A stretch of DNA of 64,000 nt from an uncultured Candidatus Saccharibacteria bacterium. Its GTDB lineage: Bacteria; Patescibacteriota; UBA1384; XYA2-FULL-43-10; 1-14-0-10-43-13. Each line of letters opens with the position of its first letter. The first letter of the stretch is position 1. The notes below the pieces were generated by a model. That model worked only from the letters and a program-made list of their open reading frames with translations, did no database searches and was not told the origin of the DNA. Positions 1,351 through 61,473 of the stretch are shown piece after piece. The stretch is from assembly GCA_964406145.1 (NCBI GenBank), contig CAYOQP010000001.1, positions 7,706-71,705 on the forward strand, given 5' to 3'. The position numbers and the translations under genes were made by a program.

Positions 1351-1419
1351 ATCCCTCCGAATATTTTCTTGATTTTATTGTACCACAAGAACAAGACTAA
1401 AAAAGGGGTTAGGGGCTCT

Positions 1420-1752
1420 TCATGGAGCCCCCTGTGCGCTGCCGACTTCTTTTTCGGTTCGTTCTTTTTCTTGCTGGATCTTTTTGAGTAGCTCCATCTT
1501 GATCTCATAATAGGCGTTATCTTCGAAGAAGAAATACCACGCCCAGATGAAACAAAAGAGCCAAGCAAGACTCGGAGACCTTTGGCAAAATGCGGCCCAG
1601 AGAGACCATAACCATGCCACAAGGACGACGATTCTCACAATCTTGTGAGAAATGGTGACTAGTTTCAGATCCAGTTCAGGCGGAATATGCATAACAGAAT
1701 TACCTCCAACGAAACATGTTATTGCTATACCACTTTTTAACATTATTCGCAA
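1420..1752 (-). CDS. Small hypothetical membrane protein, two predicted TM helices and a charged C-tail. The true start may be the internal MHIPPE.
   Basis: ORF in the 450-nt divergent region between pgk and hydB. Hydrophobic segments VVLVAWLWSLWAAF and LAWLFCFIWAWYFFF. Followed on its own strand by hairpin GGGGCTC-TTCATG-GAGCCCC (1411-1430) plus a T-run. Confidence 0.3.
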   Translation of the reverse strand: MRIMLKSGIAITCFVGGNSVMHIPPELDLKLVTISHKIVRIVVLVAWLWSLWAAFCQRSPSLAWLFCFIWAWYFFFEDNAYYEIKMELLKKIQQEKERTEKEVGSAQGAP

Positions 1753-1802
1753 CTTCTCTAATTAGTTCAAAAGGGATAAAATAGGATTATTATGGAGGGA
1801 AA

Positions 1803-2744
1803 TTGAACGCACGCATCAATGAACATCAGCTCAATCTAATTATTTCTTATATTCTGAATGAATTTGAAACTTTTGGTGTGCAAAAAAATGACGAGAAGAT
1901 TATGTTCGAATCGCTCAAGAAATCATCAGATTTTGTTATCTGGGCCGATAAACCAATCATCTCTTTTAAGAAAATCCTCTGGCCTAATGGACAGGAGATG
2001 GGTAAAAGAAATAACAGAAAAATTGCTTTTCTTGGCCTTGCTAACTGCGACGCAGAAGCACTCTCCAAATTTTTTCTAGAGTTTAATAAAACTGATTTAC
2101 TAATTGAAAGAAAAAATATTCTGGTCGTCACAACCAAGTGTAAGCCAGATGAGAATTGTTTCTGTCAAGCTTTTGGTAAAGTCAAATTTCAATATTCCGA
2201 TATTCACATCCAAAAAAATGGCCGCGATTTTGAGATCTTTGGGTTAACTCCAACTGGGAAAAGAATATTGGAGAATACCGGCGTCAAGAAAACATTGGGT
2301 CTCGAAATTGAAGAATTGCTCCCTCAGAATATCGAACAGATTGACAAAAATGAGTTATCAAACGAAATAGATAATAAGGAAAAATGGTCCGAATATTGGC
2401 AAGAAATTTCTGATAATTGTTTTGGCTGTGGCGCCTGCACCGCGGTTTGCCCGCTTTGTTTTTGCTTCCGACAAAATTCCAAGAATACCACGGATGGCAA
2501 ATGCAAAAATTGTCTAGAGTGGGACTCGTGTTTTTCGACAAGTTTTTCACAGATCCAACACCACTTTGATTTTCGACCAACCAACAAAGACCGCCTCTAC
2601 AATTGGTACCATCACAAATTCGATCGAGCATATTTTCAGAATAAACATTTCTTATGTACTGGTTGTGGTCGCTGCATCAAGGCCTGTCCGGCGCACCTTA
2701 ATCAATATCGAATAATTTCTCATTTGGTGAAAAAAAATGATTAA
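1803..2744 (+). CDS. hydB: Group 3b [NiFe] hydrogenase (sulfhydrogenase-type) beta subunit, Fe-S protein
   Basis: 313 aa. Two 4Fe-4S ferredoxin motifs, CFGCGACTAVCP and CTGCGRCIKACP, plus extra Cys clusters. First gene of a beta-gamma-delta-alpha operon. TTG start after GGAGGG. Confidence 0.65.
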   Translation: MNARINEHQLNLIISYILNEFETFGVQKNDEKIMFESLKKSSDFVIWADKPIISFKKILWPNGQEMGKRNNRKIAFLGLANCDAEALSKFFLEFNKTDLLIERKNILVVTTKCKPDENCFCQAFGKVKFQYSDIHIQKNGRDFEIFGLTPTGKRILENTGVKKTLGLEIEELLPQNIEQIDKNELSNEIDNKEKWSEYWQEISDNCFGCGACTAVCPLCFCFRQNSKNTTDGKCKNCLEWDSCFSTSFSQIQHHFDFRPTNKDRLYNWYHHKFDRAYFQNKHFLCTGCGRCIKACPAHLNQYRIISHLVKKND

Positions 2745-3543
2745 GAAAATAAATAATTTTGAATACCAAGAATATGAAATATTAGACAAAGAGGAGATTG
2801 CTCCGGAAACATTTTTGTTTAAATTAAAAGACAATATTCCTTTTAAGCCTGGGCAATTTGTCCAAGTCGCGATAGATCATTTTGGCGAAGCAACCTTTGC
2901 TATCTGTTCAAGTCCACATGAGAAAGAATATTTTGAGCTCTGTATTAGAAATTCCGGCAACACCTCCGGTCACCTAACGACTCTTCTGCCCGGAGACAAA
3001 ATGAAGATACGGGGACCATATGGCAATGGTTGGCCGATTGAGAAATTATTCGGAAAAGAAATTGTATTGATTGCTGGCGGTTTAGGATTGGTTCCCCTGC
3101 GTCCATTAATTTTTGCCCTTGAGAAAAGAAAGGTGAAGCTTGGGACAATAAAAATATTTGCCGGATTCAAGAGCCCCGAACAGGTCGTCTTCAAACAAGA
3201 TTTGCGTAATTGGATCAAGAAGTACCATGCTGATGTTGTCGTCGAGTACACTGAGAAGAATTTCTGGGGCGAGAAAGGCATGATCACCGAGGCACTAGAA
3301 AAAAGAAAATTAAATCCGAGCAGATCGATCGTCTTGATATGCGGACCAGAAATAATGTGTCCATATTGTAACGCCGTGTTATTCAAAAAAGGCATTGGGA
3401 AAGATCAGATTTACATCTCTTTAGAGCGAAGAATGGAATGTGGTATTGGTATCTGCCAGCATTGCAACTGCGGCAAACATTTAGTCTGTCAAGATGGTCC
3501 GATTTTTAGACTAGACAAAATCGAAAAAGAAATAGGCAAATAA
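2737..3543 (+). CDS. hydG: Hydrogenase gamma subunit, PyrK/AsrB-like FAD/NAD(P)-binding oxidoreductase with a C-terminal [2Fe-2S]
   Basis: 268 aa. Flavin reductase-like N-domain and a C-terminal CGIGICQHCNCGKHLVC cluster motif. Overlaps hydB by 8 nt. Confidence 0.75.
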   Translation: MIKKINNFEYQEYEILDKEEIAPETFLFKLKDNIPFKPGQFVQVAIDHFGEATFAICSSPHEKEYFELCIRNSGNTSGHLTTLLPGDKMKIRGPYGNGWPIEKLFGKEIVLIAGGLGLVPLRPLIFALEKRKVKLGTIKIFAGFKSPEQVVFKQDLRNWIKKYHADVVVEYTEKNFWGEKGMITEALEKRKLNPSRSIVLICGPEIMCPYCNAVLFKKGIGKDQIYISLERRMECGIGICQHCNCGKHLVCQDGPIFRLDKIEKEIGK

Positions 3544-4287
3544 ATGCAAAACAAAGAAACAATTAATGATTTTATACCCAAGAAAAAATTAGCTATTTTT
3601 TCCTTGACCTCTTGTGAAGGTTGTCAGTTCGAAATGCTAAGCTGTTATGAGGATTTTGAAAAAATCTTAAAATTTTATGACGTTGTAAATTTTCGTCTAG
3701 GTCAGGAAATAAATTTACCCGGACCATTTGATGTTTCAATAGTCGAAGGCAACCCCGATGGTGAAAAACAGGAAAAATTATTAAAAGAAATCCGCAAACA
3801 CACTAAATTAGTCATTGCTATAGGCGCTTGTGCTCACCTTGGCGGCATCCAATCAGAACGAAATCATCAACCCAAAAAACTTATAGATAAAGAAAAAACC
3901 AAAACAGTCGCCGACGTTATCAGGGTAGAATATATCATTCCTGGTTGCCCGATCAACAGATTTGAGCTTTATGATTGCTTAATGGACGTTTATTGGGGCA
4001 AAATTTTTCGTCTACCAGACCTAGCTGTTTGCTTCGAATGTCGTCAAAATGAAAATCCCTGCCTTTTGAAACAGAAAAAACTTTGTCTGGGACCAATTAC
4101 TCGAGCTGGATGCGATTCTGTCTGTGTCAACAGTGGTGAGGCCTGTCTGGGCTGTCGCGGCACGATTCCAAATCCGAACATCAAGAAGCTAAAACAAATT
4201 TTAGGAGCAAATTTTTCAGAAAAAGAGATTGATAATTTTATGACCATATACGGTACAAGTAAAGATTTAGAGGCAAATTTACAATGA
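3544..4287 (+). CDS. hydD: [NiFe] hydrogenase small (delta) subunit
   Basis: 247 aa. N-terminal LTSCEGCQFE proximal-cluster cysteines, then GACAHLGGI and GCPI motifs typical of NuoB-like or group 3 small subunits. Starts 1 nt after the hydG stop. Confidence 0.8.
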   Translation: MQNKETINDFIPKKKLAIFSLTSCEGCQFEMLSCYEDFEKILKFYDVVNFRLGQEINLPGPFDVSIVEGNPDGEKQEKLLKEIRKHTKLVIAIGACAHLGGIQSERNHQPKKLIDKEKTKTVADVIRVEYIIPGCPINRFELYDCLMDVYWGKIFRLPDLAVCFECRQNENPCLLKQKKLCLGPITRAGCDSVCVNSGEACLGCRGTIPNPNIKKLKQILGANFSEKEIDNFMTIYGTSKDLEANLQ

Positions 4288-5531
4288 ACGAAGCAGTCCC
4301 AAAAATTGAAGGCCACGCCGCTTTTTACTCTCATTTGAAGAATGGCCATGTTGATAAAGCCCAGCTAATTGGTTTAGAGAATGATCGTTTTGTCGAGAAA
4401 ATACTGTTTGGACGAAAATATTTTGAAGCCCCGATCATTACTTCACGTATCTGCGGAATATGTCCGACAATTCACAACATCACTTCAATAAAGGCGATCG
4501 AGGCGGCTTGCGGAATTGTGCCATCGTCTCAGACCAAGAAACTTCGAGAGCTAATGCTTTGTGGCCAGATGATACAAAGTCATTCTCTCCATCTCTACCT
4601 TTTAGTCGCGCCAGATTTTGTTGGAGCAAGCTCTTCATTTGAATTACAAAAAACTCATCCGGAATTATTCAAAAATGCCATCGAGCTAAAAAAATATGCT
4701 GACAAAATCATTGAAACAATCGGCGGACGAGCAGTCCATCCTATTGCCAGTGTCCCAGGCGGATTCAAGTCCTATCCAGAGAAAAAAGAACTGGAATTCT
4801 TAGCTGAATCAGCTAAACAGGTAGAAGAAATTGCCGCCAGAACTCTACGCCTTTTTGCTAGCTTTGGCTATCCGACAATAGAGCGAGAGATTATTTATAG
4901 CTCACTTCATTCAGATGGGGAATATGCTTTTTATGATGGAGATATTTGGACCTCGGCTGGCGACCTATTTAAGGCCGAGGAATATAACAGTTATATTTAC
5001 GAAGAGATTAAACCATACACTCATGCAAAGTTTGGGACTCTTAAGGGCAAGGAGATCATGGTTGGGGCAATGGCTAGATATAATCAAAACCACAGTCACT
5101 TCAATAGAAAAACCAAAGAAATTATTTCTGAATTAGGAATTGTTAACAAATTCGATAATCCATTCAATAATATTTTGGCCCAAGCAATCGAGAACTACTA
5201 TTTCGTTACTTTGTCTGCTGAAATTATTTCTAATTTATTGAAAAATGGCATTAAAAAAGAACATATTTTACCACCGAGAAGGTTCGGCATTGGGACTGGT
5301 GTCTGCGAAGCACCTCGTGGAACCTTGTTTCATCACTACGAGCTAGACGAGGAAGGCTTTATTACAAAATGTGATATTATCACACCAACGGTGCAAAGTT
5401 TGCCAGCCTTAGAACACGACATGAAGAAAATGGGGCCATTGCTCAAAGAGGCCGATACCGAAGAAAGAAACAGACTAATCGAAATGTTAATACGTGCTTA
5501 TGATCCTTGTATCACCTGCGCCACACACTAG
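4284..5531 (+). CDS. hydA: [NiFe] hydrogenase large (alpha) subunit, group 3b-like
   Basis: 415 aa. N-terminal Ni-binding L1 motif RICGICPTIH and C-terminal L5 motif DPCITCATH, after which the ORF stops. Overlaps hydD by 4 nt. Confidence 0.9.
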   Translation: MNEAVPKIEGHAAFYSHLKNGHVDKAQLIGLENDRFVEKILFGRKYFEAPIITSRICGICPTIHNITSIKAIEAACGIVPSSQTKKLRELMLCGQMIQSHSLHLYLLVAPDFVGASSSFELQKTHPELFKNAIELKKYADKIIETIGGRAVHPIASVPGGFKSYPEKKELEFLAESAKQVEEIAARTLRLFASFGYPTIEREIIYSSLHSDGEYAFYDGDIWTSAGDLFKAEEYNSYIYEEIKPYTHAKFGTLKGKEIMVGAMARYNQNHSHFNRKTKEIISELGIVNKFDNPFNNILAQAIENYYFVTLSAEIISNLLKNGIKKEHILPPRRFGIGTGVCEAPRGTLFHHYELDEEGFITKCDIITPTVQSLPALEHDMKKMGPLLKEADTEERNRLIEMLIRAYDPCITCATH

Positions 5532-5570
5532 GCTCTTTCAAATAATGTAAATCAGTAATAAAATATTTTT

Positions 5571-6455
5571 ATGAATGTTATCGAAATAACAAAATTAACA
5601 AAATATTATCTTGGCAAGAAAGTCTTGGGTATAAAGGATCTTAACCTTGAAGTTAAAGAAGGCGAAATTTTCGGTTTCATTGGTCCAAATGGTGCGGGCA
5701 AATCTACCACCATTAGACTTCTTCTAGATTTTATCCGGCCGACATCTGGAAATGCTAAAATATTTGGCCAGGATATTAATATCAAGTCAGTAGAAATTAA
5801 AAAACAGATCGGCTATTTGCCTGGAGAGATCTTCCTGGAAGACAATATAACAGGCAAAGAATGCCTAGATTACTACAAGGGCTTCAAAGAAAATGTTGAC
5901 GAAAAGTATCTCGATAGTTTAATAAAGCGTATGGGCCTAAGCCTGTCCAAGAAAGTCAGAGATTATTCGAAAGGAAATAAACAAAAACTGGCGATAATCT
6001 TGGCATTGATGCACAAACCGAAATTATTAATTCTTGACGAACCAACTAGCGGCCTTGATCCATTAAATCAACATGAATTTTTTGAAATTTTGAAAGAAAC
6101 AAAAAAAGAAGGCGTGACTACATTTCTGTCGACCCACATCCTTGATGAGGCTAATCGAATTTGTGATCGCGTCGGCATTATCAAATCAGGTAAGTTAATC
6201 GCTATTGAGGACATCGATGAATTTAGGACGAAGAATATTCGCGATATACATATCAAAACCTCCGAAACTATTCCCTCTTCAGTATTGAATACAGCCGGTA
6301 TTACTAAATCAGAGAAAACTGAAACGGGATATCACCTATCAATCGTCGGCCCAGATGCTCAAATCTTAAAAGAGATACTCAAATATTCAGTCGAAGATAT
6401 CGACATCGAAAAACCAACGCTAGAAGAGATATTTATTAGGTTTTACAAAGATTAA
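5571..6455 (+). CDS. ABC transporter ATP-binding protein (ABC-2 subfamily)
   Basis: Walker A GPNGAGKST, signature YSKGNKQKLAI, Walker B LLILDEPTSGLD. Confidence 0.85.
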   Translation: MNVIEITKLTKYYLGKKVLGIKDLNLEVKEGEIFGFIGPNGAGKSTTIRLLLDFIRPTSGNAKIFGQDINIKSVEIKKQIGYLPGEIFLEDNITGKECLDYYKGFKENVDEKYLDSLIKRMGLSLSKKVRDYSKGNKQKLAIILALMHKPKLLILDEPTSGLDPLNQHEFFEILKETKKEGVTTFLSTHILDEANRICDRVGIIKSGKLIAIEDIDEFRTKNIRDIHIKTSETIPSSVLNTAGITKSEKTETGYHLSIVGPDAQILKEILKYSVEDIDIEKPTLEEIFIRFYKD

Positions 6456-6456
6456 T

Positions 6457-7251
6457 ATGATCAACATCATAAAATACAATTTAAGAAAACAGTTTAAAAG
6501 CATCGCCATATACTTAGTCGCGCTGGTTGGATTTGCATTAATGTATATATCGCTATTTCCCTCTATGAAAAAGATCGACATCGAAGCGATGATGGCACAG
6601 ATGCCCAAAGAATTCTTAGGTTTTTTGGGGGAAGGTGGCGCTGCTAGCTACGGCAAGATTGAAGGATATCTCTCTGGTGAATTTTTTTCATTCTTCTTCA
6701 TACTCTTGGTTGGCTTTTATGTTTCCTCAGTAGCAGGATCAGCTATTGCCGGTAAAATTGAAAAAAGGGTAATGGATTTTGACCTCTCGCAACCAATTTC
6801 AAGATCAAAAAGGCTAATTTCTGAGACACTAGTTGCAATGTTTTATTCATTTATAATTGTCGGAGTTGTCTGTCTTTCGACTAAGTTATTGTGTCTAGCA
6901 TTTGATATATCGATATCAAGCAAAGGATTGTTATTTATGACAATTATTGGCACACTCTTCGCCTGGGCTCTATATGGGATAGCAATATTCATTTCAAGCA
7001 TCACGAGGTCCAAAATTGCAGTCTCTGGTATAACCGTATTCATCACGCTTGCCTCTTATATTTTCTACGCTTTATCACTTGCCGTTGAGAAAATAAAGGA
7101 TTATGGCAAATACAGTCTGTACAACTACTACGATCCACAAAAAATCCTCTCGAAATCAGAAATAAGCCCCGAACAATGTCTCGTCTTCCTTGCTATTTTT
7201 GCTGTAGGCACAGCAATGGCAATGATTATTTTTAACAAAAAAGATACATAA
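6457..7251 (+). CDS. ABC-2 type transporter permease
   Basis: 264 aa polytopic membrane protein, about 6 hydrophobic helices. Starts 2 nt after the ATPase stop. Confidence 0.6.
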   Translation: MINIIKYNLRKQFKSIAIYLVALVGFALMYISLFPSMKKIDIEAMMAQMPKEFLGFLGEGGAASYGKIEGYLSGEFFSFFFILLVGFYVSSVAGSAIAGKIEKRVMDFDLSQPISRSKRLISETLVAMFYSFIIVGVVCLSTKLLCLAFDISISSKGLLFMTIIGTLFAWALYGIAIFISSITRSKIAVSGITVFITLASYIFYALSLAVEKIKDYGKYSLYNYYDPQKILSKSEISPEQCLVFLAIFAVGTAMAMIIFNKKDT

Positions 7252-10649: not shown

Positions 10650-11204
10650 TTAGCGCCGGATTTTGGAATAGCGTTTCCTCTCGGCAAAGCGAGACTCGCC
10701 GATTCCGGTATCCGAGCGCAAGAAGTCGCCCATGACTCCAACGGATACCCCGAACATCTCACGCAGAACGTAGTAACTCGTGACCATGCCCTCGCCACGT
10801 CTCAGCTGCTCCATTTCGACAAGCACATAGTCGCGTAGCCTTTCGAGCTGATCCATGGGATACTTTTCCCAGCCTCTGGCGCGGAGCGGACCAGAGCGAG
10901 AAGTACCTTTGGGTTTAGCAGGCCCAGGCCGCGATGTCGGTTTCATCGGTTTGCCGGATCGAACTGCTGGCACATCATGCGGAAGGCCAGTGAGGCGCCT
11001 CCATTCCGGTTTCTCCGATTCTCTCAGTCGGGCCTCTAGTAGTCGAGCGACAAAAGCCGCATCCATGGCAAACTGTCTTGCCAGATCTTCGCATCCCGGT
11101 ATATACCGTCCAACTTTGATGCGTCGACGTACGAACTGCATCAAAGAATGACAAGCCTTGTCAGGATACTGCGAAAAGTCGGCGGATGTGTCTGTAGTAG
11201 TCAT
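10650..11204 (-). CDS. Hypothetical protein on GC-rich island 1, with a possible HTH segment
   Basis: 184 aa ORF, GC about 60% against an AT-rich backbone. Own SD GAGGAGG 11 nt upstream of the ATG. Upstream TTGAAA / ATAGTG promoter-like elements. Putative HTH CEDLARQFAMDAAFVARLL. No recognisable family. Confidence 0.4.
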   Translation of the reverse strand: MTTTDTSADFSQYPDKACHSLMQFVRRRIKVGRYIPGCEDLARQFAMDAAFVARLLEARLRESEKPEWRRLTGLPHDVPAVRSGKPMKPTSRPGPAKPKGTSRSGPLRARGWEKYPMDQLERLRDYVLVEMEQLRRGEGMVTSYYVLREMFGVSVGVMGDFLRSDTGIGESRFAERKRYSKIRR

Positions 11205-30094: not shown

Positions 30095-30134
30095 TTACCG
30101 AGAACAACATGCCAATTCAATAGAAGGGAATCTC

Positions 30135-30162
30135 GAAAAAAGCCCCGACATAAAGTCGGGGC
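30135..30162 (-). terminator. Rho-independent terminator after the GC-elevated 304-aa gene
   Basis: On the minus strand: GCCCCGAC-TTTATG-TCGGGGC followed by TTTTTT. Confidence 0.65.
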
Positions 30163-30177
30163 AAGAGATGTTAGTGC

Positions 30178-31092
30178 TTACGATATTAAACTGGCGACTT
30201 CCCGAAGGTTGTTCCAGCCCTTTCGTAAACAAATAAAGTCGTGAGCGGTCAAATTGTTCCGCCTTTCGACAATAGAGAAATCTGCCTCGCCACTAGCATC
30301 AACCAGTAGATATAGGAGATCGCGATAGATCTCTTTGGAGACAGAGAGCATATCTTCGAGCGAACAAGGGATATCGCCCAAGATAGGCTCGTTCTCTACT
30401 CGGTGGTAGGTGGGACGACGACCGATTGGAGTAAACAGTTGGTGGCTTTGCCAACGAGAGTGTTCTCCCATTTTGGCCAAAACACGTCTAGCCTCGTAGA
30501 AGATTTCCTCCGCTGCGCCTCCGACCATAATCACTTCGTCCCAGTTTTCCGCCCCATCAACCTGGAGAGGACGGCGGCCGATCAGCGCAGAGAGTGGATC
30601 GCGCATATACCAAGCATGAGAAGCCATGTATTTAAGCGCTTCCCATCCGCCCCTGCGCTCAGCAAACTGCTTGATGCGGTCCCCTCCGTGCTGGGAAAGA
30701 TAGCTAGCCATTTCATCGATCATCAGCCACTCATCAGCCAATATCGGGCGATCGCGCAGGATTCGAACGGGCGCGTTGGGGTGGAAATTGGCGACATACG
30801 CTTCGAGGTATCGAATCGCTCGGTCGGCGAAATCCGCTACGAATGGCTCGAACCCCTGGCCAAGCAGAAGGGACGAATAGTTTTCCGCGAAATAGAATTC
30901 GACATCTGCTTTTGCTTTGTCATCAGCCATTTCACGAAGAAGTGCCAGAGCCGGTATAATATATGCAGGAAGCCGAACCGGCACCTCGCAGTTGGGATCG
31001 CAACCGAAACCGGTTACGATAATGGTCCTTCCGTTAAGACGGACAGGACGGGTATCCTTGGCGAAAAGGAATTTCGGGATGTTAAGGAGCAT
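30178..31092 (-). CDS. Hypothetical protein of unknown function. GC-elevated terminal gene of the yerC-like / dapF-like operon.
   Basis: 304 aa ORF, about 50-55% GC against about 35-40% in its flanks. SD GGGAGG 8 nt upstream of the ATG. Own terminator. No recognisable motif. The antisense frame is also open, consistent with high GC. Confidence 0.5.
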   Translation of the reverse strand: MLLNIPKFLFAKDTRPVRLNGRTIIVTGFGCDPNCEVPVRLPAYIIPALALLREMADDKAKADVEFYFAENYSSLLLGQGFEPFVADFADRAIRYLEAYVANFHPNAPVRILRDRPILADEWLMIDEMASYLSQHGGDRIKQFAERRGGWEALKYMASHAWYMRDPLSALIGRRPLQVDGAENWDEVIMVGGAAEEIFYEARRVLAKMGEHSRWQSHQLFTPIGRRPTYHRVENEPILGDIPCSLEDMLSVSKEIYRDLLYLLVDASGEADFSIVERRNNLTAHDFICLRKGWNNLREVASLIS

Positions 31093-31156
31093 CTGTTTTC
31101 CTCCCAGACAATCTCAAGCGTTAGCGTCTAACACTTGGTTTTTACCCAGGAAAAGA

Positions 31157-32029
31157 TTAAATTTCTAAAATATTTTCAGACAATATTTTCACTTCGCTCT
31201 CGACTGATATTTCCGATTTGCCTAAAAATATTTTTATTTTTTTTCCGCTTGGCTGAACAATCTCAAAGGATTTTTTGCCAGTAATTTTGCTTAATTGGTA
31301 AGCCAGGGCCACTGAAGCTGAGCCACAAGCTGTCTCGTAATAAATTGTATTGAGACAATTTACTCTGACTAATGGTAATATTTGGTAAGACCACCGATTT
31401 AATTTGCGGAAAGCCACAAAACCAGCTGCACCCCCCTGAGACAAATCCGGCAACTGCCGATAAATCTGATCAAATAAATCATTAAAACCCGCATTCTCAG
31501 CACTACTGAGGCCTTTATTCTGATCCGAAAATAATTTCTGAGCTGAAGGCGGCAGAATACTTAGATCGACAAGTATCTGTGAAATCCCAGTGAGAACGAC
31601 CCGAATACAATCGACAGCGAACGAGTCTAAAATCAACTTCTCTCCAGACAATTTTTGGATAATTTCGTAACCAAATTTCACCTTGACGCAGTAACTTCCA
31701 ATAAAGATATTGCTAACTTCCGCCTTGACTAAACTTGGTGATCCCGATGTTTTAAATATGACGGAAGATCTTCTAGACTTCAGGGCGATCAAAACTGCTG
31801 CACACCGAGTAGCGTTAACACAAAGCTCACCGTTGGCCATATTAAGATTTGGAATAATGCCACCAAAATTAACAAAACCAACCTGCTCAACTTTCATCCT
31901 TTGCACATATGGGTCAGCTAGAAGTTTTCTGGCCAAGCCAATCCGATCAGCAAAAGGAACTTTGGTCACAACTAGCGCGGTAATATTCCCTCCTGGATCA
32001 GCGATAATAAATTTGATTTTTTTCTTCAT
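31157..32029 (-). CDS. Diaminopimelate-epimerase-fold (DapF/PhzF superfamily) protein with a non-canonical active-site motif
   Basis: 290 aa. N-terminal FIIADPGGNITALV (DapF-like GxGNDF region). First Cys motif NGELCVNATRCA (DapF: CGNGxRC). Second Cys motif ETACGSASVALA. Confidence 0.5.
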   Translation of the reverse strand: MKKKIKFIIADPGGNITALVVTKVPFADRIGLARKLLADPYVQRMKVEQVGFVNFGGIIPNLNMANGELCVNATRCAAVLIALKSRRSSVIFKTSGSPSLVKAEVSNIFIGSYCVKVKFGYEIIQKLSGEKLILDSFAVDCIRVVLTGISQILVDLSILPPSAQKLFSDQNKGLSSAENAGFNDLFDQIYRQLPDLSQGGAAGFVAFRKLNRWSYQILPLVRVNCLNTIYYETACGSASVALAYQLSKITGKKSFEIVQPSGKKIKIFLGKSEISVESEVKILSENILEI

Positions 32030-32106
32030 TTTTTTTCCTTAAATACGAAAAAATCTCCCGGAGGAGATTTAATGCGGATAAAATATTAGTTTTTAGATAA
32101 ACGAAA

Positions 32107-32415
32107 TTACTCTAGCTTATCCAAAGCTAATTCATACCCGCCCATGCCATGATGTAACCAATAATTTATTCGAACAACTGTCGTAGTTGAAACGCCAATT
32201 TCTTTAGCAATATCACGGACACTTTTGCCCTCTTTGAGAAGTTTGGCCGCCAAAAATCTTCGACTCGCCTCTTCTATTTCCTCGATAGTCAGAAGATCAC
32301 GCAGAAAATTAGCCATACTGTCAGCACGGTCAATAGCGGCCAAAGCCTTGTAAAGCTCCTTAGCCGCTGGTGTTTTTAATGAATTTTCTAATTCTTTTTT
32401 CATTTCTCTCTTCAC
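32107..32415 (-). CDS. TrpR-like YerC/YecD family DNA-binding protein
   Basis: 102 aa. Trp-repressor fold signature TIEEIEEASRR..AAKLL..GKSVRDIAKEIGVSTTTVVR. Confidence 0.75.
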   Translation of the reverse strand: MKREMKKELENSLKTPAAKELYKALAAIDRADSMANFLRDLLTIEEIEEASRRFLAAKLLKEGKSVRDIAKEIGVSTTTVVRINYWLHHGMGGYELALDKLE

Positions 32416-32429
32416 CTGATTAGTATCAA

Positions 32430-32456
32430 TGTGTTAACACAATGATACAGTATCAT
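32430..32456. promoter_or_regulatory. Two adjacent perfect palindromes in the divergent promoter region; candidate operator for the TrpR-like regulator
   Basis: TGTGTTAACACA (32430-41) and ATGATAC-A-GTATCAT (32442-56), located 15-40 nt upstream of the yerC-like ATG. Confidence 0.4.
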
Positions 32457-32463
32457 TTTATCT

Positions 32464-32496
32464 TTGTCAATAGGTTATTGAAGTATTTGTTATAAT
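32464..32496 (+). promoter_or_regulatory. Promoter for the MBL-fold gene, extended -10 type
   Basis: TGtTATAAT (32488-96), with TTGTCA upstream at a non-optimal 21-nt spacing. Confidence 0.45.
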
Positions 32497-33683: not shown

Positions 33684-35171
33684 GTGTTAAACACCCCCGC
33701 CGTTAATCTCGGCATCGTTGGCGTCAGCCGGGATTGCTTCCCGATCGAACTGACCCGGACCCGTCTCGGCCAGTTGGCCGAAGCCTGTGGCGACCATGCC
33801 ACCCCGTTCACCACGATCATCGAGAGCGAACGCGATGTCGCATCTGTCCTCAAAGAGGCGCATGATCTCGGCACCAACGCGATCGCGATCTATCTCGGCA
33901 ACTTCGGCCCCGAAGGCCCACTGTCCCTCCTCGCCGAAAAGTTCGGTGGCCCCGTCATGATCTGTGGCGCCGCCGAAGAGAGCATGCACACCCTGATCCA
34001 GGGTCGTGGCGATGCCTTCTGTGGCATGTTGAACGCGCACTACAATCTCGGACTGCGCCGGAAGCGCGTCCACACCCCGCAGAATCCCGTGGGCCTGCCT
34101 CACGAACTGGCGATTGAGATCGCCCACTTCATCAAGGTCGCCCGCGTCGCCCTCGGCATGAAAAGCCTCAAGGTCTTCGGATTCGGCCCGCGGCCCCAGG
34201 ACTTCCTGGCCTGCAACGCGCCGATTCAGCCGATCTACAACCTCGGCATCGAGATCATGGAGAACAGCGAGCTCGACCTCCTGAGGCTCTACAAAGCCGT
34301 CGATGAGAACGATCCTGAAATCGCAGTGATCGCCGAAGACATGGCTGCCGAACTGGGCCAGGGTAACACCTACCCCGACCTGTTGGCCAAGCTGGCCCGT
34401 TACGAACTGGCACTGTCCCGCTTCTTCGACGCCAACCTCGGCATGAGCAACTATGCCGTGATGGCCGACAAGTGCTGGCCGGCCTTCGAGGCCGAATTCG
34501 GCTTCGTCCCCTGCTACGTCAACAGCCGCTTCGCCAAGCGCGGCATTCCCATCGCTTGCGAAGTGGACGTCTACGGCGCGATCAGCGAGTATATGTGCCA
34601 GCTCGCGAGCCTCGCACCAGCGACCCTGCTGGACATCAACAACACCGCCCCGACCGATTTGTTGGCCAAGCTCGGCCGCAACTTCGATCCGGGCAACTTC
34701 TGGATGGGTTTCCATTGCGGCAATACCCCGTCCTGCCAGATGAAGAGCTGCGCTATGGCCTACCAGCTCATCATGAATCGTCTGATGGAAGGTGGCAACA
34801 CGCCCGACATCACCCGCGGTACCCTGGAAGGCCAGCTTCGCCCCGGCGCGGCAACGATCTTCCGCCTGCAAGGGACATCGGACAACTATCTGGCCAGCTA
34901 CATGGCGGAGGGCGAGATCGTCGATCTCGATCCCATGAGCTTCGGCGGCATCGGAGTCTTTGAGATTCCCGACTTCGCCCGCTTCTACCGCCACGTCCTT
35001 TTGAGTCTGCGTTTTCCGCATCACACCGCCGTGGCCTTCGACCACTGCGGCGAGGTGCTCTATGACGCGACGAAGATGCTCGGCCTCGCCAACATCTTCA
35101 CGCCGAACCCGGCGTCGATCCCCTACGAGCGCGAGAACCCGTTCTCCCTCGCCCGGATCAGCGGCAAGTAA
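33684..35171 (+). CDS. L-fucose/L-arabinose isomerase-family (COG2407-like) sugar isomerase, on GC-rich island 3
   Basis: 495 aa, about 62% GC, GTG start. N-terminal VNLGIVGVSRDCFP...AIYLGNFGPE pattern of FucI-like proteins. Central acidic metal-site candidates CEVDVYGA. Antisense frame fully open, a GC artefact. Confidence 0.5.
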   Translation: MLNTPAVNLGIVGVSRDCFPIELTRTRLGQLAEACGDHATPFTTIIESERDVASVLKEAHDLGTNAIAIYLGNFGPEGPLSLLAEKFGGPVMICGAAEESMHTLIQGRGDAFCGMLNAHYNLGLRRKRVHTPQNPVGLPHELAIEIAHFIKVARVALGMKSLKVFGFGPRPQDFLACNAPIQPIYNLGIEIMENSELDLLRLYKAVDENDPEIAVIAEDMAAELGQGNTYPDLLAKLARYELALSRFFDANLGMSNYAVMADKCWPAFEAEFGFVPCYVNSRFAKRGIPIACEVDVYGAISEYMCQLASLAPATLLDINNTAPTDLLAKLGRNFDPGNFWMGFHCGNTPSCQMKSCAMAYQLIMNRLMEGGNTPDITRGTLEGQLRPGAATIFRLQGTSDNYLASYMAEGEIVDLDPMSFGGIGVFEIPDFARFYRHVLLSLRFPHHTAVAFDHCGEVLYDATKMLGLANIFTPNPASIPYERENPFSLARISGK

Positions 35172-60633: not shown

Positions 60634-60656
60634 AGGCGGCCCGTCATGGGCCGCCT
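60634..60656 (-). terminator. GC-rich terminator hairpin overlapping the cdsA stop codon
   Basis: On the minus strand: AGGCGGCCC-ATGAC-GGGCCGCCT (9-bp perfect stem) followed by a T-rich tract. Confidence 0.5.
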
Positions 60657-61473
60657 AGAATCCGATCAAGCGGAAGAGAAGGTAAGCAACAGGAGCAGCA
60701 TAGATCATGCTGTCCAGTCTATCAAGCATTCCGCCATGGCCGGGGAAAATCCCTCCGGAATCCTTTTTGTGAAGATTCCGCTTCAGGAGCGATTCGACCA
60801 AGTCTCCGACCTGGCCAAAGACTCCAACGACTGGGCCCAATAGGACCAAAGTCGCTTTGTGTAGTAAGATGGCAAACACTGCCGCCATCAAGATCGCCGC
60901 TACGAAGCCAGCAACACAGCCGCCCACGGTCTTGCCAGCACTGATGTCTGGGCAAAGCTTGGCAGTCTGCAGTTTCCTGCCGATCAGGTAAGCGAAGATG
61001 TCTGTCGCCCAGATCGTAAAGAAAAAGGCGACCACGAGCATTGAGCCCGTACCGGTCTGAAAACCGAAGACAATACTCTCGCCCGGAATGGCACGGATTG
61101 CGGCGATAAAGCTCGGCAGTAATCCGATATACAGAACTAGCCTGACAGGATTGTCGGCCTTTAGGGCCAACTTACCCAGTACCAGTTCACCCCCAAGAGC
61201 CATCATAGTCACCAAAGCCGACAGGACAAGAACCACTTCGAAGCCACCAGTGATACAGGCATAACTAGTTGCATAAGCCGCAACGACAGTTATGACCGAG
61301 AACAACTTGATCGTCTCCGATTGACCTGCCATGTCGCAGTACTCGCTCACCATCATGACGACAGTGATGGCTATAAGAGCCAGAAAGAAATCTTGGTTAC
61401 CCAAGAATATTGATGCCACAGTTAGGGGGATCCCGATAACTGTGACGACTAATCTTGCCAGAAAAGTCTTCAT
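60655..61473 (-). CDS. cdsA: Phosphatidate cytidylyltransferase (CDP-diglyceride synthase), on GC-rich island 4
   Basis: 272 aa polytopic protein. C-terminal signature KRNLHKKDSGGIFPGHGGMLDRLDS. GC clearly elevated against both flanks. Confidence 0.85.
   Translation of the reverse strand: MKTFLARLVVTVIGIPLTVASIFLGNQDFFLALIAITVVMMVSEYCDMAGQSETIKLFSVITVVAAYATSYACITGGFEVVLVLSALVTMMALGGELVLGKLALKADNPVRLVLYIGLLPSFIAAIRAIPGESIVFGFQTGTGSMLVVAFFFTIWATDIFAYLIGRKLQTAKLCPDISAGKTVGGCVAGFVAAILMAAVFAILLHKATLVLLGPVVGVFGQVGDLVESLLKRNLHKKDSGGIFPGHGGMLDRLDSMIYAAPVAYLLFRLIGF

Follow-up and report, generated by a model that had tools for sequence, protein, structure and literature searches.

Tyrosyl- and tryptophanyl-tRNA synthetases (TyrRS and TrpRS; PF00579), which belong to class Ic of the aminoacyl-tRNA synthetases, have a Rossmann-fold catalytic domain that carries the HIGH and KMSKS signatures. 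Among synthetase relatives with other roles, the cyclodipeptide synthases (CDPSs) have a class-Ic-like fold in which both signatures are absent, GluQRS/YadB and MshC keep them, and HisZ and GCN2 belong to class II. To our knowledge, none of HisZ, the HisRS-like domain of GCN2, GluQRS/YadB, MshC and BshC is coupled to a racemase. Operons that join a racemase to a consumer of its product are the rule for D-amino acids, as exemplified by Alr-Ddl, MurI-MurD, aspartate racemase with the D-aspartate ligase Aslfm, and the CntK-CntL pair of staphylopine synthesis. The present analysis concerns a 64,000-nt stretch of DNA from an uncultured Candidatus Saccharibacteria bacterium (contig CAYOQP010000001.1, positions 7,706 to 71,705; hereafter the window) and, within it, a minus-strand gene at 30178..31092, called as an open reading frame (ORF) with an ATG start, whose 304-residue product is referred to as the target. 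The target represents an undescribed protein family that is predicted to have the class Ic (TyrRS/TrpRS) catalytic-domain fold, and the functional coupling of this new synthetase-fold family to racemases is very probable.

Fold and motifs of the target family

The family was revealed only by an exhaustive profile search, which covered 1.84 billion cluster representatives (50% identity) and recovered 237 of them at E<=1e-3 and 45 at E<=1e-30; a word-indexed homology search gave just six relatives, every one annotated "hypothetical protein". Conservation within the family spans 88% down to about 25% identity. The target has no match at E<=1 in Pfam or NCBIfam, and neither the target nor its racemase neighbour matches any PADLOC model of anti-phage defence. 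Family profiles of 6 and of 46 sequences retrieved only noise from the PDB sequences, and hhalign of the family profile gave no match to M. jannaschii TyrRS. No description of the family was found in the literature searched, and a 2010 survey of class-I synthetase-like proteins covers the CDPSs and a MetRS paralogue and not the target family.

Structure prediction, which the preliminary description of this DNA had proposed for the 304-residue protein, resulted in a confident AlphaFold 2 (AF2) model. Its closest structures are A. pernix TyrRS (structural match 15.1, with 242 residues aligned at 11% identity), human TyrRS (15.0) and A. pernix TrpRS (14.1), in agreement with Foldseek, and the values for CDPSs (9.9 or less) and for other class I synthetases (9.7 or less) are lower. 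The predicted structure comprises a TyrRS/TrpRS-type Rossmann-fold catalytic domain, and its C-terminal helical part is shorter than that of TyrRS and TrpRS. Despite the shared fold, no sequence similarity to these synthetases is detectable.

The signature motifs of class I are replaced in the family, which supports the earlier remark that no catalytic motif is recognisable, insofar as it concerns these signatures. The HIGH signature (H-x-[GA]-H) is absent from all 46 aligned members and its position is occupied by R40-x-x-[AS]-Y44. With the exception of one off-position chance match, no KMSKS-like string was found in the 46 members; the corresponding position is the loop G224-x-x-P227-x-Y229 after the last core strand, in which residues 225 and 226 are not conserved basic residues. 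A near-invariant G28-x-G30 loop follows strand 1, and the first helix begins at R40...Y44. The family motifs are G28-x-G30...R40-x-x-x-Y44 and Y67-x-A69 in the N-terminal part, Y155-x-x-x-H159...M163-x-D165 and G191-G192-x-x-E195-x-x-F198...R202 in the middle, and Q218...G224-x-x-P227-x-Y229 and D258 in the C-terminal part. Eight residues (R40, Y44, Y67, H159, G191, E195, G224 and D258) are invariant in the 46 members, and A69, Y155, M163, D165, G192, F198, R202, Q218 and E235 are further invariant or near-invariant positions. In the model, Y155-x-x-x-H159...D165 would be placed where TyrRS has the Y-x-x-x-Q..D amino-acid-binding helix, and GG..E..F...R where archaeal TyrRS has GGxEQ. The most distant members retain the core (G28, G30, R40, Y155, GG, E195, F198 and G..P.Y) and are altered at the pocket positions 44, 159, 163-165 and 202, which are the positions that vary where the family gene has a different partner; this combination suggests a restructured active site whose specificity pocket is variable. 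The isoelectric point (median 6.3, range 4.9-9.4) is uninformative on tRNA binding.

Membership of two described families was considered and rejected. Against TyrRS/TrpRS stand the missing HIGH and KMSKS signatures and the lack of any match to PF00579 or to the NCBIfam TyrRS and TrpRS models; in addition, the target is almost always encoded beside a racemase and is co-encoded with a canonical synthetase rather than replacing one. The CDPSs share with the target a class-Ic-like fold devoid of HIGH and KMSKS. However, the target lacks the G-x-S serine nucleophile after strand 1 (G28-x-G30, with position 31 variable) and has no PF16715 match, the sets of conserved residues differ, racemase pairing is not a CDPS feature, and the target model is structurally closer to TyrRS/TrpRS. 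The target family is a new family on the predicted TyrRS/TrpRS fold, composed of synthetase paralogues that were probably recruited outside canonical aminoacylation and are undescribed in the literature and curated libraries searched.

Racemase partners and the histidine/tRNA-His module

About 30 non-redundant loci from assemblies, GTDB genomes and JGI metagenomes were examined. Of about 25 informative lineages, about 21 have a racemase gene that adjoins the family gene or is fused to it. In the window and in about 19 other lineages, a racemase of the DapF/CntK type directly adjoins the family gene, and the stop and start of the pair often overlap or abut. The pairing lineages belong to at least five phyla of the Candidate Phyla Radiation (CPR), including Saccharibacteria, Magasanikbacteria, Parcubacteria, Gracilibacteria and Peribacteria, and the order of the two genes flips between clades while the pair is retained. 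The type of racemase also varies. The gene adjoining the family gene of locus L025 encodes an Asp/Glu-type racemase (PF01177, E 2e-37) unrelated to the DapF type, and the pocket residues of the L025 family protein are unchanged; such a replacement of the DapF-type racemase by a non-orthologous one would be anticipated if the D-amino acid alone is important. P0100 is itself a fusion of the family domain with an Asp/Glu racemase domain, and its gene is adjoined by a class II synthetase-like gene (Asp-type). In the tandem-duplicated member P0124 (972 aa, two family domains; L021 1698-9921), the genes located 3´ encode a GCS2-type carboxylate-amine ligase, an enolase-superfamily MR_MLE (dipeptide-epimerase-type) enzyme, a 344-aa protein with no assignment and an M20 peptidase. 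The three unrelated racemase or epimerase folds among the partners suggest that the relevant feature is D/L interconversion itself.

Other recurrent neighbours of the family gene belong to D-amino-acid or peptide chemistry: VanX/VanY M15 peptidases adjoin it in L015 and L032, M20 peptidases lie nearby in four lineages and GNATs in two (L015 and L022), and a Ddl-like ATP-grasp protein and a Mur ligase were also observed. The module resembles the known pairs of a racemase with a second enzyme, and its racemase is of the same CntK/HisR type as that of CntK-CntL (HisR being here the histidine racemase). In contrast to the second enzymes of these operons, the target is a synthetase-fold protein and is not ATP-grasp, Mur-ligase or nicotianamine-synthase-like. 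A staphylopine-type CntKLM system, considered on account of the CntK-like racemase, was rejected as no CntL- or CntM-like neighbour is present in the scanned loci. Another member of the family occurs as a domain fused to TrpRS. Two further gene arrangements were recorded. A gene of the SLOG type (LDcluster4, LOG-like nucleotide-binding) stands beside the family gene or the histidyl-tRNA synthetase (HisRS) gene in four lineages (L015 7205-7867, L022 4116-4808, L031 and L032). On a 164-kb contig of 58.5% GC (L019 1-10500), a biosynthetic-looking cluster diverges from the gene for the family::Asp/Glu-racemase fusion and encodes a Ddl-like ATP-grasp protein (446 aa), a tRNA-synt_2 class II synthetase-like protein (394 aa), a second Asp/Glu racemase, a 297-aa protein with no assignment and a TauD dioxygenase.

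The racemase gene of the window is located at 31157..32029 on the minus strand, and profile, PDB and residue alignments identify its product as a two-cysteine, cofactor-independent racemase of the DapF/CntK fold. The preliminary description had called it DapF-like; the fold assignment stands, and the enzyme is closer to the histidine racemases. Among PDB entries it is matched best by 9cr1, the histidine racemase of F. nucleatum (E 3.4e-9 across the full length, against 6e-4 for DapF), and its only NCBIfam matches are histidine-racemase models, with scores far under the cut-off (NF052224, 59 bits against 400; NF033599, 36 bits against 300). The catalytic residues C70 and C235 are the counterparts of C67 and C209 in 9cr1/9cr6 and are invariant in 10 module racemases. 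The proposed histidine-binding residues N18, E65, N69, E206 and S211 of the F. nucleatum enzyme correspond to N15, E68, N72, E232 and S237; E65 and E206 are the acidic residues proposed to hold the imidazole, and the E65 position is Ala or Leu in DapF/HypE (PMC11602996). E68 is present in nine of the 10 module racemases (Gln in the other) and E232 is invariant. This alignment indicates that the window racemase is most likely a histidine racemase.

A link to histidine was also observed in the regulation and gene content of the modules. YerC, named HisR as a regulator, is a repressor that requires L-histidine to bind cacTTTA-N6-TAAAgtg, and its published regulons in Firmicutes and other phyla contain histidine biosynthesis and transport genes (PMC9413887). 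Several CPR modules have the YerC-family regulator and the operator consensus in common with these regulons; instead of biosynthesis and transport genes, they contain HisRS, tRNA-His, the racemase and the synthetase-fold protein. Exact CTTTA-N6-TAAAG boxes are present in the module promoters of L003, L012/L029, L022 (two), L033 and L034 (two, directly upstream of the family gene), positions that suggest autoregulation. YerC-like genes accompany the racemase/family pair in 10 lineages, and a HisRS gene is part of the module in seven, with two copies in L003. Among the eight tRNA genes found in 28 loci, two are tRNA-His(GTG) genes and both are next to modules (L022 3330-4130 and L003 1188-1264); a HisR box precedes one of the two. 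What surrounds the racemase/family pair is a histidine/tRNA-His module that comprises a YerC/HisR repressor, HisR boxes, often HisRS and sometimes tRNA-His, so that the pair is apparently co-regulated with genes for tRNA-His charging.

Of the two HisR boxes of L022, one separates yerC from tRNA-His and the other is placed in the divergent promoter of the SLOG-HisRS-GNAT-racemase-family genes. The region upstream of the L003 module (1386-7053) encodes a radical-SAM/SPASM protein, two HisRS paralogues, each with an anticodon-binding domain, and a 346-aa protein that weakly matches phosphoribosyltransferases. A role of the target family in G-1 addition to tRNA-His was rejected, because G-1, facing C73, is already encoded in the two tRNA-His genes of the modules, the usual state in bacteria. 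An Rfam search of the window and seven module loci detected tRNAs only, with no T-box or other leader.

The regulator gene of the window (32107..32415, minus strand) matches TIGR02531 with 57.1 bits (cut-off 42.2) and PF01371 with E 5e-16. The score of the TrpR model is 27 bits, under its cut-off of 67; what was first described as a TrpR-like regulator is more precisely a member of the YerC/HisR family. Its true start is likely the ATG at 32403 (98 aa), with AGGTGA upstream. A promoter-like TTGACA-17-TATCAT element (11/12) is located 5´ of yerC at 32441..32470 on the minus strand, and its -10 box is covered by a perfect 17-bp palindrome, AATGATAC-T-GTATCATT (32441-32457), which occurs exactly only here in the window, six further matches having three mismatches each. 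This palindrome is a candidate autoregulatory operator and differs from the canonical HisR box of the other CPR modules and of the HisR regulons. It is followed by a second palindrome, GTGTTAACAC, and then by a TGATAC half-site. The interval from yerC to the racemase gene contains a terminator-like hairpin, AAATCTCC-TCCG-GGAGATTT with a T-run (32051..32070, minus strand), that possibly causes partial termination or attenuation; no promoter-like site was found after it. The minus-strand context shared by the three genes, initially described as one operon, holds; owing to this hairpin, however, the operon may be two transcription units with read-through.

Composition, strand and descent of the target gene

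The target gene has the translation and termination signals that the preliminary description had listed. A Shine-Dalgarno sequence, GGGAGG (31100..31105, minus strand), is located 7 nt upstream of the ATG, and an intrinsic-terminator-like hairpin with a T-run, GCCCCGAC-TTTAT-GTCGGGGC (30162-30142, in the element 30134..30162, minus strand; 8-bp stem with seven GC pairs, 5-nt loop), sits 3´ of the stop codon and closes the racemase/target unit ahead of ligA. The reported GC elevation is likewise present. The GC content of the target gene is 0.519 (GC1 0.613, GC2 0.400, GC3 0.544), compared with 0.39-0.41 in the flanking racemase, yerC and ligA genes, in which GC3 is about 0.35-0.36. The whole window is AT-rich (GC 0.41; ORF median GC 0.40, GC3 0.36). 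A test of codon usage placed the GC3 of the target 5.4 robust standard deviations above the window median, at rank 4 among 53 ORFs of at least 150 aa. A GC content of 0.447 is predicted from the amino-acid composition of the target and the background codon usage; about 60% of the GC excess results from synonymous-codon choice and about 40% from amino-acid composition, in which GC-coded residues are abundant.

A 242-aa frame is open on the plus strand at 30403..31131, as the preliminary description had noted, and the chance that it is the real gene is negligible. Compared with L007 (88% amino-acid identity), the window differs at 26, 13 and 77 nt in the first, second and third codon positions of the sense frame. 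These differences result in 65 synonymous and 36 non-synonymous codon changes in the sense frame, against 12 and 51 (of 63 differing codons) in the antisense frame. The antisense frame is interrupted in L001, L003, L004 and L005, where the longest open stretches are 43-73 aa. Long antisense frames are expected in GC-rich genes, and a 501-aa antisense frame likewise accompanies the gene at 33684-35171; high GC usually produces such frames, and that of the target is one of them. The third-position-dominated substitutions and the synonymous excess in the minus-strand frame, together with the Shine-Dalgarno sequence, the terminator and the operon context, demonstrate that this gene is real; conservation of its product across the family and the confident AF2 model point the same way.

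The GC elevation had led to the proposal that a foreign gene, functionally unrelated to its neighbours, was recently inserted by horizontal transfer 3´ of a native regulator/racemase pair. The deviant GC3 speaks for this, the window contains other GC-rich outliers (for example, 33684-35171 with GC3 0.825), and since the closest homolog of the target is itself GC-rich (GC 0.537), an allele from a GC-richer relative may conceivably have taken its place. However, a synteny comparison revealed that the arrangement of racemase, target, ligA, gatC and gatA is shared with a Saccharibacteria relative. In the Saccharibacteria metagenome-assembled genome (L001/L002/L010), the order is racemase, target homolog, a small opposite-strand gene, ligA, gatC and gatA; the window differs in that the opposite-strand gene is absent and a PHP gene lies between ligA and gatC. 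The amino-acid identity between relative and window is 68% for the target, within the range of its neighbours (ligA 80%, gatC 68%, racemase 47%), and this, together with the shared position, indicates vertical descent rather than insertion. The pairing with the racemase is conserved across CPR phyla, and no tRNA gene is present anywhere in the window.

The compositional argument is weakened further by the family itself. The GC content of the family gene exceeds that of its own locus in L001, L003, L004, L005, L011, L012, L016 and L033. In 11 of the 16 other lineages compared, its GC3 is higher than in the neighbouring racemase gene (difference up to 0.19), and the gap is 0.14-0.19 in several unrelated AT-rich CPR genomes (loci L011, L012, L013, L016 and L033). 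Homologs at the same position in AT-rich genomes are thus also GC-elevated, a finding that the preliminary description had named as decisive against its own proposal and that largely settles the point; part of the GC excess belongs to the family as such. Unusual constraints on the gene, the other possibility raised in the preliminary description, may apply. The foreign-gene proposal was rejected as very improbable, and the target is a genuine, vertically inherited gene.

Three other ORFs in the window are GC3 outliers. A 495-aa L-fucose-isomerase-like or sulfoquinovose-isomerase-like gene (33684-35171, plus strand; PF02952 E 6e-20, NF048012 weak) has a GC content of 0.617 and a GC3 13.6 robust standard deviations above the window median, and is by far the strongest; it is a much better candidate than the target for recent horizontal transfer. 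The gene at 60655-61473 (minus strand, z 6.9) encodes a CTP_transf_1 protein (CdsA-type cytidylyltransferase, E 6e-46), and that at 10650-11204 (minus strand, z 5.6; GC 0.55) encodes 184 aa with no Pfam match.

Proposed function and significance

The target protein probably handles the D-amino acid of the racemase, as the conserved gene pairing suggests. In the mechanism we propose, the racemase would interconvert L- and D-histidine, and the synthetase-fold protein would bind histidine or a histidyl moiety in a TyrRS-type pocket formed by Y155, H159, D165 and E195 and, acting as a ligase or transferase, join the D-amino acid to an acceptor. For the activated partner, a link to tRNA-His, with histidyl-tRNA supplied by the HisRS of the module, is more probable than a classical aminoacyl-adenylate; the missing HIGH and KMSKS signatures combined with HisRS and tRNA-His neighbours suggest such a tRNA-linked substrate. 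A ligase or transferase that consumes D-His is preferred because racemase operons generally encode a consumer of the D-amino acid. By analogy with these operons, the target may make a product or conjugate that contains D-His, a possibility we put forward tentatively, and the reading as a whole, a racemase partner acting as a histidine/tRNA-His-linked ligase or transferase, is held at slightly less than an even chance. We infer histidine binding, consumption of the D-isomer, the chemistry and the acceptor alike.

Several observations weigh against this proposal. The module of the window has no canonical HisR box, and neither a HisRS gene nor a tRNA gene, tRNA-His included, lies within the window. 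Near the family genes of L032, L039 and L040, in which the flanks are present, no racemase was found. The histidine specificity of the window racemase is deduced from alignment, and its score against NF052224 marks it as a distant relative. In the absence of HIGH and KMSKS, classical ATP-dependent activation is doubtful, and a CDPS-type mechanism is unsupported because there is no conserved nucleophile such as the CDPS serine. Finally, L-His is the co-repressor of HisR-type repressors (PMC9413887); a HisR regulon that is switched on when histidine is scarce fits salvage or quality control better than histidine-consuming synthesis.

The last point leads to an alternative in chiral proofreading, which we regard as unlikely. 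CPR auxotrophs would salvage D-His through the racemase under HisR control, and the target would bind the acceptor end of histidyl-tRNA-His in a CDPS-like manner and hydrolyse D-His-tRNA-His as a side-chain-specific analogue of the D-aminoacyl-tRNA deacylases (DTDs). The loss of HIGH and KMSKS with retention of a pocket agrees with this function, as does a module holding HisRS, tRNA-His and HisR boxes, for which de-repression at low histidine is expected. The TrpRS fusion resembles a cis-editing domain, and a Trp enzyme and an Asp-type class II enzyme are found among the associated synthetases; TrpRS and AspRS both belong to the synthetases for which mischarging with D-amino acids is known. 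The MR_MLE epimerase with the M20 dipeptidase, and VanX/VanY, are salvage-type enzymes that convert D-containing peptides to free amino acids, and a D-His-tRNA-His deacylase fits these neighbours and the HisR logic best. However, a hydrolase on the TyrRS/TrpRS fold has no known precedent, known DTDs are side-chain-independent so that one per cell is enough, and obligate pairing with a racemase, let alone fusion to it, would be more usual for enzymes that catalyse successive metabolic steps. A still less probable alternative is a non-catalytic sensor or regulatory subunit, a pseudo-synthetase that would bind histidine or uncharged tRNA-His and control the activity or direction of the racemase, sparing the auxotroph a waste of L-His. 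Precedents are HisZ, a HisRS paralogue that regulates HisG, and the HisRS-like domain of GCN2. Lost catalytic signatures with conserved pocket-like residues would be consistent with a sensor, as would the close coupling with, or fusion to, the enzyme that it would regulate and the varied amino-acid-producing partners in other clades (aminotransferases, a dehydrogenase and M20 peptidases). Nevertheless, new invariant polar residues stand exactly at the HIGH and KMSKS sites (R40/Y44 and G224/P227/Y229), and these and the Gly-rich loop after strand 1 persist in the most distant members, which argues for a remodelled active site and not for decay; tandem duplication and the TrpRS fusion are also unexplained by a sensor.

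Synthetase-derived proteins that left translation, such as the CDPSs, HisZ, GluQRS and MshC, each opened new biochemistry. The target family, invisible to Pfam, NCBIfam and PDB sequence searches and tied to racemases of three unrelated folds, raises a testable question about how D-amino acids are handled relative to tRNA charging in amino-acid-auxotrophic CPR bacteria, organisms that generally lack amino-acid biosynthesis. Speculatively, and with a probability well below even, tRNA-linked D-amino-acid enzymes under HisR control may be widespread in the CPR, either as side-chain-specific D-aminoacyl-tRNA deacylases or as transferases of D-amino acids to residues derived from aminoacyl-tRNA. The locus also illustrates that elevated GC in a gene of an AT-rich genome does not have to mean foreign origin. 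The modules described here extend the HisR regulon concept to the CPR, and their racemases suggest where a third lineage of cofactor-independent histidine racemases might be found.

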